A stretch of 64,000 bases of DNA, taken from contig OZ024740.1 of the NCBI GenBank assembly GCA_964016885.1, positions 116,870,001-116,934,000 of the forward strand, given 5' to 3'. Each line of letters opens with the position of its first letter. Position 1 is the stretch's first letter. Source of the stretch: Eledone cirrhosa (lineage: Eukaryota). Shown piece after piece: positions 7,160 to 64,000 of this stretch. The position numbers were made by a program, and so were the translations under genes. The notes beneath the pieces are model-generated. The model was given only the letters and a program-made list of their open reading frames with translations. It was not told where the DNA came from and did no database searches.

Positions 7160-8112
7160 TATTAATTTTATACATAATTGTGTATGGTTGACGATATATT
7201 TAATCGATTTCCACGTGCTATTGAAATGCTGGGTAAATATTATATAGCTGTTGATCGCGAATAGATGGCTGTCGTTTATTTATCTATTGTTTCTTCATAG
7301 GTGCCTTTTAATCTTATAGCCTGGTTTAATTGTTTTTTTGTGTGGTTGATTATGCCTATTGGGGGAGGAGATGGTGTATATATCTTATCAAATGATTCTA
7401 TGTACATACTTTATTGTATATTGATCTGATTATTTAATTAATTAATTCGTCATTGAGACACATCGTGAATGGTTGCCAAAAACATATATATATATATATC
7501 TATGACTTTGTCTAGTTTATGTATATGTAAATCTTTATATTTGATAATCTCCCATAAGGTTGAGATGCAATTTAGGCAATATTAGGCTGCGCTTTCTAGC
7601 AACCAGCCCACTCACCGTAAGGCACCAATCACATTCTTTCTGAGTTGACCACTGCCACATCACAGTTCTTAGCCATTTTGAATTCGTTTCTGGCGGGGAT
7701 CATTTAAGAAAAATCTTCGTCCAAGTGAGTTTGTTTCCTGATGATTTCGAAGCTCGTGAATTTATCCTTGATCGGATATTTCCAAAAGCGAAAGAAACCT
7801 CATGGGGTAGAAACGTAATCTTGGTATGTTTATATACATTTTTTCTTCTAACTTTAATTTTATACCTAATTGTGTCTGGTTGACAATATATTTAATCGAT
7901 TTCCACGTGCTATTGAAATGGTGGGTTAATATTCTATAGCTGTTGATCGCGAATAGATGGCTGTCGTTTATTTATCTATTGTTTCTTCATAGGTGCCTTT
8001 TAATCTTATAGCCTTGTTTAATTGTTTTTTTGTGTGGTTGATTATGCTGATTGGGAGAGGAGATGGTGTATATACATCTTATCAAATGATTCTATGGACA
8101 TACTTTATTGTA
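7160..8112 (+). mobile_element. HHR-containing ~692-nt unit, ~1.4 head-to-tail copies in (TA)n (retrozyme / non-autonomous PLE-like)
   Basis: 7166-7420 repeats at 7858-8110 (ccacgtg at 7211 and 7903, period 692); homologous to 61204-61935. Confidence 0.85.
7733..7814 (+). ncRNA. Type I hammerhead ribozyme
   Basis: Stem I gtttc/gaaac, core CTGATGA (7738-7744), stem II tttcg/cgaaa with a long insert, GAAA, near-palindromic stem III ACCTCATGGGGT, GUA cleavage after 7809. Confidence 0.85.
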
Positions 8113-8884
8113 TATATATATATATATATATATATATATATATATATATATATATATATATATATATATATATATATTTATATATTTATATATATCTGTC
8201 TATTTATGATTATATGTCAATAGAAAAATACTGAAAACATACTTCTAAGGTAAATTAAAATGAATATAGTATTGCGTATGTCAAGTCAATTGTTTTTATC
8301 TATGAAATATATATACCATTTGTTTATAAGTATGTATATATGTATGTATTGACACATACACACACAAAGTTGACCTACGGGATTTGAACTCAGAAAGCAG
8401 ATAGCCTTAACGAATGCCATAAGCATTCTATCCGACGTTCTAACGCCACATCTTTATCGCATATATCTTTGTTAAAAGACTACGAAAACATAACAAAAAG
8501 AAAACAAAAACACACACACACGTAAATTTACCATCTTCTAGTTTGTACTTATTTGCCCAATAATAAGTTCAATACAAAGCCTTTCAAAATGTTTTATATA
8601 TCGTTTTGAAAGAAATATCCTATAGTAGGTTTTATATACAAAAACACCTTATTTGTAGACTTTGCTCTTTGGGAATACTTATATTTTTCTTAATACATTG
8701 TTACATGCATCTATGTAACAGTAACAGTAACAGTAACAGTAATTTTCGTCAATTCATATTCAGTGTAACTTGAACAAACCCAACAAAACTTCGAATATAT
8801 CATCAGTCATCCGAAAGGAGTCGATAACTAGAAAACCCACACATTGAGCTGCTATTCCACTACATCTAACAGTAATATATATAT

Positions 8885-9116
8885 ATATTGTTATACTTTG
8901 GGAGGGTCATGTTGCCAATAAGAAATACACGCACCAGTTGCTTTCCCTCAAATTTATTATAAATTAAATTTATAAATTTAATTTATAATAAATTGGAGTG
9001 AAAGCAACTGGTGCGTGTGTTTCTTATTGGCAACATGACCCTCCCAAAGTATAACAATATCGGTTTCAACACACGTTTTCAGATAAAGAATCTTGCTAAA
9101 CAAATTCAGAAACGAA
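8885..9116 (+). mobile_element. Fold-back insertion in (TA)n (~85-bp arms plus unique 3' extension)
   Basis: 8885-8965 is the inverse of 8975-9060. Same family as 45526-45900, which carries an HHR; related to 24234-24568 and 43720-43790. Confidence 0.85.
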
Positions 9117-9159
9117 ATATATATATATATATATGTACACACACACACACACACACATG

Positions 9160-9335
9160 AGCTCTTAACGTTTCAACAGTTAGTTCCAGACTCTGGAACT
9201 AGCTGTTGAAACGGCAAGAGCTCAGCCGTCAGAGTCTTGACTCTTTACAATATAACTATACTCTGCTACCCCAAATATTGAGTACTCTGGTGACTAATGG
9301 TCTAACCAGTTTCAAACTGAATCCATCCGGATTTA
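9160..9335 (+). mobile_element. Diverged member of the GGAACGAGTAGG fold-back family (also 57851-58060)
   Basis: Hairpin tttcaacagttagttccaga..tctggaactagctgttgaaa followed by cggcaagagctcagccgtc and ctaccccaaatattgagtact. Confidence 0.7.
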
Positions 9336-9919
9336 TATTATATATATATATATATATATATATATATATATATATATATATATATATATATATATATATA
9401 TATATATATATATATGTGTGTGTGTGTGTGTGTGTGTGTGTGTGTGTGTGTGTGAGTGTGTGTGTGTATAGTTATGCACACTGAATATTTTATTATTTAA
9501 AAAATAATTCCGCTTTTCATATTTGTATTCTAATTGCGTTTATTTAAGTTTCAGTTTGCGTGTTGCTTAAAATGTTGCTGAAGTTTTAAAAATTACAGGA
9601 CAAGAATTTCTCACAGGAAGAATTCAGAAATGGACAAAACTGTCAAATAAACCATAAATCATTTTAATGTAACTCAGTCATTAGATCAGAGTGCAGCAGT
9701 AATATTCTGGACGAAAATGTTCATGAGGCCTTCCCACATAGTAAAGTGAACAAGAGAATGTTATAATTTTTACAAAATTTTCTCGCTTTTCTTTTACCCT
9801 GGGAATCATTGAAGGAGAAAACATTATTATTCATCTGCTAAGTCGGTGAACACAAACACAAATATATTTGAAAATAACTCATTAAAAATGCTATAATAAA
9901 GTAGAAGTCAGACATACCA

Positions 9920-60941: not shown

Positions 60942-61011
60942 TATACACACACACACACACACAAATATATATATATATATATATATATATATATATATAT
61001 ATATATATATA

Positions 61012-61935
61012 TATAAATGTAAGTCCAAAGAATCATTAGGTAAAATATATACAGTATTTCCTCTCCCAATCAGTATAAATCAACCACATAAAAAAATCAT
61101 TTAAACGAGGCTATAAGTTTAAAATGTACTTATGAAGAAATAATAGACAAATGATACAGATTATTTTCCGCGATGTACAGCTATATGACACTTATCTGGG
61201 ACTATGTCTAATTATATGTATATACCCTTTGAATTTAATATATACTCCCGTAAGGTTGAATTTAGGCAGTATTCGGCTGCGCTTTCTAGCAATCAGCCTA
61301 CTCGCCGACAGGCACCAATCACAAACTTTCTGCCTTGACCACTGGCCACGTGATGGTTCTTAGCCATTTTAAATTCATTTCTGGCGGGGATCATGGTAGG
61401 AGAAACTGAGCCCAGTCTGGGGTATCTCCTGATGAGTTCCAAATCTCGTGGATTTATCCAGGACTGGGTATATCCAAAAAGCGGAACGAAATCAACGGTG
61501 GTAGAGACTATGAGAATTCTAGTAAAATTTATGTACATTTTTTCTTCAAACTTATATTTTGTACCTAATTCCGAGTAGTTAACTATTTGTCTAGTCAATT
61601 TCTACAGGCTAGAAGAAATAATTAGATAAATGTCATATAGCTGTACATCGCGAAAAATAATCTGTATCTTTTGTCTATTATTTCTTCATAAGTACATTTT
61701 AAACTTATAGCCTCGTTTAAATGATTTTTTTATGTGCTTGATTTATACTGATTGGGAGAGGAAATACTGTATATATTTTATCTAATGATTCTTTCGACTT
61801 ACATTTTTATATATAGCTCTGATTAATAATTATTTAATTAATTCTTCATTGAGCCACACCGTGAATGGTTGCCACACTCATATATGTATCTGTGCTTATG
61901 TCTAATTATATGTATATACCCTTTGAATTTATATA
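61012..61935 (+). mobile_element. HHR-containing ~694-nt unit with terminal redundancy and an inverted 5' arm
   Basis: atgtctaattatatgtatataccctttgaattta at 61204 and 61898 (period 694); 61012-61198 is the inverse of ~61624-61810. Confidence 0.85.
61425..61507 (+). ncRNA. Type I hammerhead ribozyme
   Basis: tctc-CTGATGA-gttcc..ggaac-GAAA-tcaacggtgg-TA-gaga; covaries with the 7733-7814 copy. Confidence 0.85.
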
Positions 61936-62214
61936 TATATATATATATATATATATATATATATATATATATATATATATATATATATATATATTGGTAA
62001 ACGGAATAGAAAATGCTGACAAATTGTTCACAGTCGAAAAATGGTTTAATTAGGAATAAAAGAGTATTAGTGATTGTATGGGTTAGTATTCAGTTGTGGT
62101 TTTAAGTTTTTAAGTTTTTACCGGTTGCGCATTTCTAAATGCTTTTCAAAAATAATTTTGAGATAGAGTGTCCGTGTTGTTTGCTCTGATCTGATTAGTT
62201 TTGGGAATTCTACC

Positions 62215-62460
62215 TGTTTTTATGTTAAAAAAGTGGCTCCAGCGTTACTTTGGTGTAGCAAAAATTCTTGTGGTCAAAACAATTTTGATTGGTCGGTAGA
62301 GGTCATGTGAATGTAAAAAATTGATTTTGCGCCAAGACTGTTTTTATGTTAAAAAAGTGGCTCCAGCGCTACTTGGTGTTTGCAAAAATTCTTGTGGTCA
62401 AAACAATTTTGATTGGTCGGTAGAGGTCATGTGAATAAAAGATTGGTTTTGCGCCAAGAT
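62215..62460. repeat. 124-bp tandem duplication
   Basis: tatgttaaaaaagtggctccagcg at 62221 and 62345. Confidence 0.9.
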
Positions 62461-64000
62461 TGAGAAATGACTCTTTCACAACAAATATGTGTGTGTGTGT
62501 GTGTGTGTGTGTGTGTGTGTAGTAGTAGTAAGGTGTTCGATGTTGTGATAATGGTTAGCAGGGATGTGTGTCAAATGGCTATTAAGATAAGTGTGTGTGT
62601 GTGTGTGTGTGTGTGTATATAGCAGAGTAATTCGTGGTAGCAGGGATGGTCAGTAAGAATGTGTCTGAAAGCAATGGGGGGTATTTTAGCATGTCAAAAG
62701 ATATTTTTCAGCTTTTGTCTTATACGGAGAAGTGCGTGTGTGTGTGTGTGTGTGTGTGTATAAGTCTCTTTGTATGTTAATGTACGCGTGTGTATGTGTG
62801 TGTGTATATATATGTGTGTGTGTGTGTGTGTGTGTGTGTGGGTGGACCAGTATTTTTTTTCCCTGGTAAAATGGTGTACATTATTCGATTTTTTCAGTAA
62901 AATCGGTTCTCTTAATAGAACATCAAAAATCTTAACAATAAAAGGTGTGAAATGATATTCACTATATATATATACACATACATATATTCACTATATATAT
63001 ATGTATATAAATATACATACATATATATATATATATATATATATATACACATATATTTTTTTGTGTTGCACTATAGAGCATGTGTGTTTACGTATGTCAT
63101 TGTGTTTATATGTGGGTAGAGATGTGTGCTGATGTAGGTATGTATGTTGACGTGTGTATGTTGTGGGTTCGTCTTAGGGAGAAGTGTTTAGACATATATA
63201 AATATATATATATATAAATATATATATATACATATATAAATATATATATATATATATATATATATATATATATATATATATATAAATATATATATATAAA
63301 TATATATGTATAAATATATGGAGAAAAACCACAGACCCTCCATCTCAACTCTACTTTGGAAAAGCAAAAGAACTGCGAAACCGGTAAAGGCACCAAATAA
63401 ATATATATATATTTTTTTAATAAGACTCCAGTTGCATTTTCGATTTCATCTTTTTTCTTTATACTTTCACTCGTGTAGGACACCTCGGTTATTTTTCATT
63501 TTGTAAAAATAACTTCACTTTCTAATATATATATATAACGAAGGAAATGTGGTAAGGAACCAGGTGGCCCATAACGCACCAAAATACTCAATACTTAGGA
63601 TAGTAGAGTGGGTAATAGGAACGAGTAGGACCCCGACGGCTGAGCTCAAGCCGTTTCGACGGCTAATTCTAGTCCAGAATTAGCCGTCGAAACGGCTTGA
63701 GCTCAGCCGTCGGGGTCCTACTCGTTCCTATATATATATATATATATATATATATATATATATATATATATATATATGCACCACAAGCTTCTGCAGTTTC
63801 CGTTTACCAGAATTAATTCCCATGTCATTGGACAACCCAAGTGTATACTACAAGACATTTGCCCTGAAACCACTTGGCTGCAAAGCGAATTCCTCAACCA
63901 CACAGCCATGCCTTGCGCATATAACGCAACACATTGAAAATTCACATAATGACAGAAAGAATCTAAATTATTTCTACAAACAAAATCTGTAATCGGAATT

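Follow-up and report, generated by a model that had tools for sequence, protein, structure and literature searches.

Type I hammerhead motifs associated with (TA)n-targeting Penelope-like elements in Eledone cirrhosa

The hammerhead motifs described here are very probably carried by several Penelope-like elements (PLEs) that target (TA)n, in their 3' repeats, and by short non-coding tandem units likely borrowing the same enzymes; these are type I folds whose short self-complementary stem III is predicted to allow cutting by dimers of the same family, and the majority of copies in the genome are probably truncated relics without activity. The window analyzed is a 64,000-nt stretch of Eledone cirrhosa DNA (GCA_964016885.1, contig OZ024740.1, 116,870,001-116,934,000, forward strand), in which single coordinates for minus-strand sites give the low end of the motif. 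Published systems are compared through excerpts of the cited sources.

Hammerhead motifs in the window and in the genome sample

A sequence-only reading of the window had proposed 15 hammerhead topologies from several distinct families, associated with PLEs. A hammerhead-like motif, intact or damaged and always type I, is indeed present on the expected strand at all 15 sites, which sort into eight families: five tied to PLE ORFs, two representing short non-coding tandem units and one unlinked. The strict descriptor (CUGANGA or UUGANAA, stem II of at least 3 bp, GAAA, stem III of at least 2 bp, UH, stem I of at least 4 bp) matches seven times in the window, every time at one of these sites (cores 7738+, 22339-, 22950-, 23051+, 23949-, 24057+ and 61429+). 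Allowing U-U at the base of stem II adds 43086+, bringing the total to 8 of 15; the other seven sites are damaged or weak family members, and about half of the listed window copies are damaged. Twenty local dinucleotide shuffles of the window yield a single strict match summed over all (0-1 each), and five decoy cores yield none in the window, nor does a simple S-G-C-order descriptor for type-SGC (non-circularly permuted) hammerheads.

The motifs had also been thought probably unannotated, and Rfam misses all of those listed: its models give no hammerhead match in the window at the gathering score, and a search of 22780-24150 returns no hammerhead model among 72 matches at E<=10. Their supposed loss to low-complexity masking is not borne out, as DUST touches none of the 15 motifs, while TRF masking takes in 5 nt of a single motif. 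That first reading had not listed three copies with a GCAA core, nor at least five insertions in which a further hammerhead family is represented by its 3' half alone.

A 990-kb genome sample contains 47 strict motifs, compared with 0-2 in its shuffles, and the sample motifs fall into at least 23 clusters at a density of roughly 47-68 per Mb. Extrapolated from this sample, the whole genome would hold about 140,000 strict motifs (range 89,000-201,000); the window is about 2.3 times richer in motifs than the sample, in which AGAACT is the most frequent of the window families. Because of these sample counts, the expectation of a large and diverse repertoire holds. To call it a ribozyme repertoire overstates function, since damage affects about half of the copies listed, members of inverted pairs would bind their own antisense copy and same-strand partners are rarely nearby.

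Elements that carry the motifs

One complete element, outside the window (locus L200), is laid out as inverted pLTR, pLTR, 821-aa ORF and pLTR, with the ORF intact; two identical hammerheads 3689 bp apart bracket the ORF and a third is inverted. Its protein, which has no match in Pfam or PDB and no CX2-5CxxC linker, displays the motifs RWT, SDKT, YRDD, CNCRIKNKC (CxCX5C), CNLC (CxxC) and CLH (CxH), and by these motifs we would place it in the Hydra clade of C-terminal-endonuclease PLEs. The RW(K), DKT, CxCX5C, CxxC and CxH motifs are common to that clade, including Hydra-1_Obim of Octopus bimaculoides, as are a single ORF, a (TA)n target and a canonical hammerhead near the 3' end, the last two found here as well; some families in both sets have a U-U or bulge at the base of stem II (PMC8557442). 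The L200 element differs in carrying RWT rather than RWK and in its length, with a 3.7-kb unit and 1-kb 3' UTR against published Hydra PLEs mostly shorter than 3 kb, and its stem III words are even-length palindromes, whereas most Hydra hammerheads listed have a 1-3 nt centre (PMC8557442).

Several window features resemble this element. A 5'-truncated Hydra-like PLE at 21198..21975 (-; upstream limit approximate) retains a 3' UTR, a hammerhead at 21221-21272 and a broken endonuclease remnant at about 21700-21897 (tblastn to the L200 protein, E 4e-7); its core at 21266- sets U3 opposite G8, where the family majority has C3, and holds an extra base. The ORF end upstream of the ACTTAAGT motif is found inside the window, and PLE ORF ends precede ATATGTAT motifs at three loci. 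The inverted pair of Hydra-like ATATGTAT ends at 22138..22569 has an additional tail on its left arm only, and of its hammerheads 22281-22346 (-) passes the strict descriptor while stem I of 22459-22524 (+) is broken; a decayed relative of this family lies at 44646..44777 (-), with C3 opposite A8 in its hammerhead at 44689-44753. Both hammerheads (23887-23957, -; 24051-24119, +) of the young Hydra-clade ATGCGCAT pair at 23763..24150 pass the strict descriptor, and the left arm matches the pLTR of the complete L200 element at 100% identity over 256 bp. Decayed Hydra-like ORF fragments at 24983..25812 (+) are 37-39% identical to the L200 protein, and no intact hammerhead was found behind them.

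The ACCGGT, GCAA and AGAACT families share a second kind of carrier. The inverted pair at 22778..23172, of the ACCGGT family with its U3-A8 core, contains two hammerheads passing the strict descriptor (22917-22954, -; 23047-23084, +) and a tail confined to the left arm. Tailed stubs of the same family lie at 43418..43621 (-; hammerhead 43554-43591, stem I just 3 bp) and 63321..63524 (+; hammerhead 63353-63390, damaged by U4G). GCAA replaces GAAA, again with a U3-A8 core, in the PLE 3' stub at 20768..20945 (+; motif 20798-20838), and related stubs occupy 45141..45438 (-; motif 45272-45310, with a short inverted arm) and 61995..62223 (-; motif 62115-62154); the excerpts of PMC4209133 contain no such core. 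In the AGAACT 3' stub at 45529..45890 (-), the hammerhead at 45679-45721 combines a stem II mismatch with the non-palindromic stem III AG-AA-CU, and 1 of 30 family loci passes the descriptor.

At locus L015 a GIY-YIG domain above the Pfam cut-off (E 1e-7) lies 1.0 kb upstream of the ACCGGT motif, with similar spacing at L025, and PLE ORFs end upstream of the AGAACT and GCAA motifs at two loci each. Loci L298-L300 give weaker RVT_1 and GIY-YIG matches, below the cut-off. A CX2-5CxxC linker precedes GIY-YIG (CGRSNCGTC in L015, CIDKKCIIC in L299), an order of linker and C-terminal GIY-YIG upstream of the ACCGGT, GCAA and AGAACT motifs that matches Neptune and Nematis PLEs, as does insertion into microsatellites (PMC8557442). 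Judged by the linker, the carriers of these three families would be of Neptune/Nematis type, the two clades being undistinguished; no intact full-length copy of this type was recovered.

The two non-coding families consist of short tandem units. An element at 7162..8110 (+), with a unit of about 692 bp, a partial head-to-tail duplication (7162-7416 = 7854-8110) and a longest ATG-ORF of 43 aa, carries a hammerhead at 7732-7815 that passes the strict descriptor and has ACCUCAUGGGGU as stem III, where the family majority has ACCCCAUGGGGU. Its diverged subfamily at 61015..61929 (+) comprises a 694-bp unit plus 43-bp overlap, a short inverted arm (61015-61197) and a hammerhead at 61425-61507 that also passes, with a non-palindromic stem III. 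Same-strand neighbours occur 693 bp away at 1 of 28 loci of this family, and 480-496 bp apart at 5 of 26 loci of the unit of about 490 bp, a partial copy of which lies at 43001..43360 (+; hammerhead 43081-43161, stem III ACCGCGGU, U-U at the stem II base). Like metazoan non-LTR retrozymes, for which movement by PLEs has been proposed, these are head-to-tail non-coding units with one type I hammerhead each, and both window copies of about 693 bp have terminal overlaps; unlike retrozymes, they are mostly partial or inverted copies, with units of about 490 and 693 bp against 150-450 bp (PMC7229834; bioRxiv 10.64898/2026.07.22.740005). Their common insertion geometry suggests that they likely borrow PLE enzymes.

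A hammerhead-like motif at 33876..33948 (-) belongs to a repeat family with no ORF link here; it has the non-palindromic stem III ACC-UUU-GGU, three extra nt before GAAA and a weak stem II, and 0 of 30 family loci pass the descriptor. The fold-back stub at 23291..23490, from an abundant further family, is broken off inside stem II, keeping GAAA, a long stem III and the cut site without a CUGANGA-type core. Similar stubs of this family lie at 20972-21096, 44878-45069, 58201-58392 and 63538-63728, and the complete motif is present in L067, L241 and L295.

Insertion, dimer pairing and the need for cleavage

The motifs had been described as hidden in (TA)n tracts; they do adjoin such tracts, but the listed motifs lie outside them, their cores 44-501 nt upstream. 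A (TA)5 run follows within 300 nt for 58 of 64 motifs, compared with 36% of random positions. Behind the motif, copies run out into (TA)n at either of two fixed points (+43-46 and +133-134 in the ATGCGCAT family, both also seen in public contigs as loose ends of (AT)n), 5' truncation is variable and an inverted arm is often joined. In five families the motif follows the end of an RT/GIY-YIG ORF on the same strand, at a distance of 0.2-1.7 kb. Depending on the family, an inverted upstream partner occurs at 1-13 of 17-30 loci and a same-strand partner within 1.5 kb at 0-6 of 17-30. As in PLEs, pLTRs in partial tandem, an inverted 5'-truncated copy and a one-sided tail are all found, with tails of about 30-90 nt here versus the 30-40 bp published. 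The inverted pairs of the window are the usual inverted, 5'-truncated PLE insertion, and would fold into a long hairpin (predicted -248 kcal/mol) rather than a cleaving dimer.

Following published PLE work, the PLE endonuclease would cut (TA)n and reverse transcription would start at two internal RNA sites, leaving the one-sided tail. Two motifs within one transcript, either pLTR-ORF-pLTR or tandem, may pair through stem III and cleave weakly. Cleavage would be dispensable for insertion, because copies rarely start at the cut site (arm 5' ends coincide with it in 1 of 24 and 1 of 49 arms) and the GCAA-core family is widespread.

Covariation supports the fold itself. In the ATATGTAT/ATGCGCAT group alignment (A1), where only stem II is an independent test because stems I and III were picked by the search pattern, 97.2% of stem II cells are paired, six of seven pairs show two-sided changes and none of 500 shuffles scores as high for covariation. 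Another comparison of stem II finds 153 of 200 paired, against a null mean of 123 and maximum of 146. Stem III was claimed to be nearly always palindromic, which is too strong: with G-U pairs accepted, 11 of 15 sites have a self-complementary stem III (the exceptions being 33878, 44691, 45679 and 61425), as do six of eight families, and it is palindromic in 39 of 63 C3-G8 matches of the 990-kb sample. The centre of stem III stays self-complementary across families, in keeping with published dimer cleavage. Among sample clusters whose words have an even length, the innermost pair is self-complementary in 14 of 16 (p 8e-5), and in 10 of 13 this holds for both inner pairs (p 9e-7); these binomial values are too small because clusters share descent. 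For short palindromes, predicted monomer hairpins are unfavourable (+1.9 to +6.0 kcal/mol) and self-duplexes favourable (-2.2 to -14.1). Dimer-only cleavage is not general, because AGAACT has neither a palindrome nor a predicted self-duplex and ACCCCAUGGGGU can form a stable monomer hairpin (predicted -3.7 kcal/mol); a short self-complementary, monomer-unstable helix III is lacking in AGAACT and ACCTTTGGT.

It is possible, though we doubt it, that the hammerheads are active and required, with cleavage (perhaps circularization) needed in PLE and retrozyme-like transcripts and the variant cores (U3-A8, extra base, GCAA) serving as working, dimer-tuned ribozymes. This would account for a core kept while compensatory changes rewrite stem II across subfamilies, for GCAA in all 32 pattern matches, drawn from 30 loci, where stem II and palindrome are retained, and for tandem units of 311, 490, 595 and 693 bp that resemble circRNA-forming retrozymes (PMC7229834), yet no accumulation of 5' ends is seen at the cut site, and stem I of the GCAA family is a 3-4 bp A-U helix. 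Moreover, hammerhead mutants leave anole PLE insertion in vitro unaffected (PMC11167929), and an extra base after A6 gives low activity in another hammerhead (PMC3088659).

We consider it highly improbable that copies in introns or UTRs form a host-relevant repertoire, cutting transcripts of the host either in cis or, by pairing with abundant RNAs of their own family, in trans. The sheer number of motifs and the intact, young state of some copies, with 44 of the places scored 100% identical over 131 bp, speak for such a role; the damage to about half of the window copies, the predicted hairpins, the rarity of same-strand partners and the poor cleavage of minimal PLE hammerheads even as dimers (PMC4209133) speak against it, and no host gene was identified in the window. 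Chance matches in AT-rich, repeat-rich DNA deserve practically no credence, being refuted by the shuffle counts of window and sample, by stem II covariation and by defined families that recur at a constant position downstream of PLE ORFs, even though the relaxed U3-A8 descriptor is noisy (1-6 matches per shuffle) and a 32-bp tandem array at L043 yields false U3-A8 matches.

Relation to published hammerheads

The biology is already published, namely PLE hammerheads with palindromic helix III, TA targeting and inverted ends; a comparable scale was not found in the literature searched. Small-palindromic-helix-III hammerheads of metazoan PLEs are reportedly treated by Lunse et al. 2017. Metazoan PLE hammerheads (Cervera and de la Pena 2014, PMC4209133) likewise are type I with a short palindromic helix III and long helix II, occur as many families per genome in mostly single truncated copies, include the U3-A8 variant and form pairs on opposite strands, separated by 100-700 bp. 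Octopus bimaculoides is already known to carry a hammerhead-bearing Hydra PLE (Craig et al. 2021, PMC8557442); the excerpts of that source give no genome-wide hammerhead count.

What hammerheads do in PLEs is treated as an open question in PMC8557442 and PMC11167929, and a genome with an intact, young element of the Hydra clade, tens of families and core variants that have become fixed offers ready constructs for tests of cleavage, dimer dependence and ribozyme need. We think it unlikely that this is the densest hammerhead complement yet described, at 50-70 per Mb, with dozens of families whose spreading members include working core variants (notably U3-A8 with GCAA for GAAA) cutting only as family-matched dimers; if true, it would be a natural mutant panel with which to settle if cleavage has a bearing on how PLEs move and if transcripts of the host are cut.

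Rfam-style annotation can overlook 10^5 motifs in one genome. The axolotl genome is about ten times larger than that of Eledone cirrhosa. Against the roughly 140,000 strict motifs estimated here stand about 2,000 plus 1,300 in Schistosoma, 4,000 in coelacanth and 9,000 in Xenopus (PMC4209133). The 126,247 motifs of axolotl come from two families, compared with at least 23 clusters here (PMC7229834; bioRxiv 10.64898/2026.07.22.740005).

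Hammerhead motifs and their abundance

The sequence-only reading listed 15 hammerhead sites in the window, and a hammerhead-like motif is present at every one of them, on the strand it gave. Seven of these, and nothing else in the window, satisfy a strict type I descriptor; 20 local dinucleotide shuffles together gave one match, and five decoy cores gave none. The motif at 43086 (+) becomes the eighth to pass when the descriptor tolerates a U-U where stem II begins at its base; the remaining seven, weak or damaged, belong to the same families or to relatives of them. Eleven of the 15 sites have a self-complementary stem III; no permuted hammerheads above chance were found in the window. 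By stem III word the motifs fall into eight families: ACCCCATGGGGT (element 7162-8110, containing site 7733, with a diverged subfamily at 61425), ACTTAAGT (21198-21975), ATATGTAT (inverted pair 22138-22569, with a relative at 44691), ACCGGT, ATGCGCAT (inverted pair 23763-24150), ACCTTTGGT (33876-33948), ACCGCGGT (a partial copy, at 43001-43360, of a non-coding unit of about 490 bp) and AGAACT. The window spans G000:C1:116870001-116934000; eight genome searches with its motifs gave 41-56 matches each, from the 40 candidates scored.

The motifs were suspected to be unannotated, and Rfam at its gathering score indeed gives no hammerhead in the window. None occurs among the best 150 of 242 matches for the whole window, or among 72 weak matches for 22780-24150, and the miRNA-hairpin matches that Rfam returns here are spurious. 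The accompanying idea that the motifs lie hidden in (TA)n tracts and are lost to low-complexity masking is not supported: they adjoin (TA)n rather than lying inside it, DUST overlaps none of the 15, and TRF touches a single one, at its edge.

A sample of 99 hand-spaced 10-kb stretches of the same genome (990 kb, biased to large contigs) contains 47 strict motifs in 30 stretches, compared with 0-2 in six shuffles. This density, 47 per Mb, extrapolates to about 140,000 motifs (89,000-201,000 on bootstrapping the stretches) in the 3.0-Gb genome, likely a cephalopod's to judge by its repeats. Under relaxed criteria the set grows to 69, comprising 63 C3-G8 matches and 6 of 19 U3-A8 matches, and extrapolates to about 204,000 (137,000-279,000); the other 13 U3-A8 matches were discarded before counting, six as a 32-bp tandem array and seven as judged chance. 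At L043:7700-8270, elsewhere in the genome, a 27-32 bp tandem array mimics U3-A8 hammerheads and yields false descriptor matches. The 69 relaxed motifs group into 23 clusters, and the Chao estimator puts the total near 32, in keeping with the very large and diverse repertoire foreseen from the window. (TA)5 lies within 300 nt downstream of 58 of 64 motifs, versus 36% of random positions. The window itself is rich: it has seven strict motifs where the sample predicts three, and its (TA)n content is 1.7 times that of the sample. Of the window families, only ACCGGT, ATGCGCAT, AGAACT and the GCAA family, named by its core variant, also appear in the sample.

From the portions of the sources available, up to 9,000 minimal hammerhead motifs are reported in Xenopus (PMC4209133) and 126,247 motifs in axolotl (bioRxiv 10.64898/2026.07.22.740005); the published count for giant squid is 235 Rfam matches to hammerheads. 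The main text of the 2026 Octopus vulgaris repeat annotation mentions neither hammerheads nor ribozymes, and no cephalopod hammerhead census was found in the literature searched, a scope outside which lie Lunse et al. 2017 and most supplements, which may bear on the point. Judged from sequence, this is a hammerhead system of known type whose set of members is new, whose copies are mostly relics, and whose cleavage is predicted.

Stem pairing and insertion geometry

Among 22 members of the ATATGTAT/ATGCGCAT group, picked by hand for diversity, 97.2% of cells are paired, two-sided changes occur in six of seven stem II pairs, and none of 500 shuffles reaches the covariation score. An end-anchored test of 20 representatives found 153 of 200 positions paired, where the null averages 123 and never exceeds 146. 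Stems I and III belong to the search pattern and are therefore not independent evidence of pairing. In the alignment of this group, three stem II pairs are followed at position 4 by a constant pyrimidine-rich mismatch (C-C in 11 of 20, C-U in 6 of 20), a possible site of tertiary contact.

For the short stem III palindromes, computed energies are unfavourable for a monomer hairpin and favourable for a self-duplex. The innermost stem III pair is complementary in 14 of 16 sample clusters; in 10 of 13, the next pair inward is complementary as well, so that both inner pairs form. The significance of these counts is overstated because the clusters are related; the tally was made by hand, excluding descriptor-forced pairs and leaving out six odd-length words and one 4-mer. 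The innermost pair is one that a monomer cannot form, and its complementarity fits pairing as a dimer. Dimer-only cleavage would not be general: AGAACT has no duplex, ACCTTTGGT carries a 3-nt loop, and one 12-nt palindrome is able to close as a monomer.

Opposite-strand hammerhead pairs in the window are divergent arms of single insertions, a layout described for Penelope-like elements (PLEs) in the sections available of PMC8557442 and PMC4209133. Measured from the cut site, the 3' ends of incidentally recovered ATGCGCAT arms lie at +43-46 in 14 of 24 and at +133-134 in 10 of 24. ACCGGT, GCAA and one further family likewise have two ends each; ACTTAAGT contributed only five arms. Loose (AT)n ends occur at the same two positions in public contigs, taken from three runs and used solely for end positions. 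These ends fit the two internal reverse transcriptase (RT) start sites of an anole PLE, as described in the available part of PMC11167929. A 5' end coincides with the cut site in just one arm each among the 24 from ATGCGCAT and the 49 from AGAACT; 29 of the 49 AGAACT arms start downstream of it. It thus seems that cleaved RNA is not normally the insertion template, in agreement with the continued insertion of hammerhead mutants of the anole element (PMC11167929, same part). Read-through RNA of the pair at 22780-23170 is predicted to fold as a single hairpin (-248.5 kcal/mol) in which the sense motif would be sequestered.

Links to Penelope-like elements and retrozyme-like units

A full-length PLE, by its motifs of the Hydra clade, lies at L200 (G000:C14:24856500-24864500) and is laid out as inverted pLTR, pLTR, ORF and pLTR. 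Two ATGCGCAT copies 3689 bp apart flank its intact 821-aa ORF (2232-4694), and a third, inverted copy lies upstream. The window arm 23763-24018 is 100% identical to its pLTR over 256 bp, and at least 44 places among those scored are identical to the window's ATGCGCAT motif over 131 bp; the element is apparently young. Its protein carries RW, SDKT, YRDD, CxCX5C, CxxC and CxH and lacks CX2-5CxxC, matching the Hydra-clade definition (RW(K), DKT, CxCX5C, CxxC and CxH without CX2-5CxxC) in the text available of PMC8557442, whose supplement, as far as available, lists Hydra-1_Obim of Octopus bimaculoides with a canonical hammerhead and a (TA)n target. Searches of Pfam and PDB gave no match to the L200 protein; it has 65 homologues, mostly unnamed, at 30-40% identity, many with PF26215. 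The ORF at 24815-25519, provisionally labelled 'Naiad' by motif, was misassigned and matches this Hydra-type protein.

Other families have comparable neighbours. A Hydra-like endonuclease ends 1.4-1.7 kb upstream of ATATGTAT at three loci, and the window holds a broken one upstream of ACTTAAGT. ACCGGT lies 1037 and 1062 bp downstream of a CX4CxxC plus GIY-YIG end (L015 and L025; Pfam E 1e-7), and AGAACT 0.2-0.4 kb downstream of a different RT plus GIY-YIG ORF (L299 and L300); by motif, both ORFs would be of Neptune/Nematis type. No ORF link was found for ACCTTTGGT. PLE ORF matches near the 7738, 33878 and ACCGCGGT loci belong to neighbouring insertions and were not accepted.

The ACCGCGGT and ACCCCATGGGGT families show no ORF and recur head to tail, ACCGCGGT with a spacing of 480-496 bp (5 of 26 loci) and ACCCCATGGGGT with one of 693 bp (1 of 28); both window copies of the 693-bp type show overlaps matching this layout. 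In these respects the units resemble non-LTR retrozymes. Two other retrozyme-like arrays were observed, with 311-bp tandem hammerhead units, four direct and one inverted, at L360:8630-9700, and a 595-bp tandem unit with a U3-A8 core at L038:2380-2975.

Core variants, truncated families and other repeats

A U3-A8 core is known for PLE hammerheads (PMC4209133, in part). The GCAA family, a sister of ACCGGT, combines it with GCAA for GAAA in all 32 pattern matches at 30 loci (L303-L332). At two loci it lies about 1.0 kb downstream of a Neptune/Nematis-type endonuclease. Six motif-spanning copies occur in the 990-kb sample, and the sequence-only reading missed three copies in the window, at 20798-20838 (+), 45272-45310 (-) and 62115-62154 (-). 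The term A13C, as a natural hammerhead variant, was not found in the literature searched; an extra base after A6 in another hammerhead gave low activity (available part of PMC3088659).

A further family, very abundant with 29 arms in the 990-kb sample, carries a type I U3-A8 hammerhead whose stem II is long and whose 5-bp stem III has a palindromic loop. Its complete motif occurs at L067, L241 and L295. In most copies a 5' truncation, at a hot spot within stem II, has removed the core, and the window has only such halves, at 20972-21096, 23291-23490, 44878-45069, 58201-58392 and 63538-63728, all truncated inside stem II. A search for its parent ORF found none. One Hydra-like family (L024, L034, L014, L019, L127) has a 3' end with GAAA and a stem II, but CAGAAGA stands where the core is expected and stem I is not clear; it may be a spreading family whose ribozyme is dead.

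Small fold-back insertions without a hammerhead lie in or near (TA)n at 1880-1965, 2372-2444, 8889-9108, 9158-9338, 24294-24564 and 46059-46161; 8889-9108 matches the AGAACT tail, which marks some of these insertions as stubs cut off downstream of the motif. A decayed LINE at 26439-29821 (-), which we take to be RTE-like, retains AP-endonuclease (Pfam E 8e-8) and RT fragments. LINE fragments at 54838-55972 (-), presumably R4/Dong-like, show a weak zf-RVT match and a restriction-like endonuclease motif and are interrupted by a (TACA)n tract. A SINE-like repeat of about 190 bp has at least 12 copies in the window, among them 4132-4275, 10004-10216, 17794-17988, 32487-32712, 44223-44435, 48086-48292, 50378-51111 and 60253-60470. 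Finally, a dispersed repeat of 200-600 bp, 84-91% alike between copies, occurs at 18457-19074, 30388-30645, 47295-47560 and 55964-57741, with nested copies near 56-57.7 kb.
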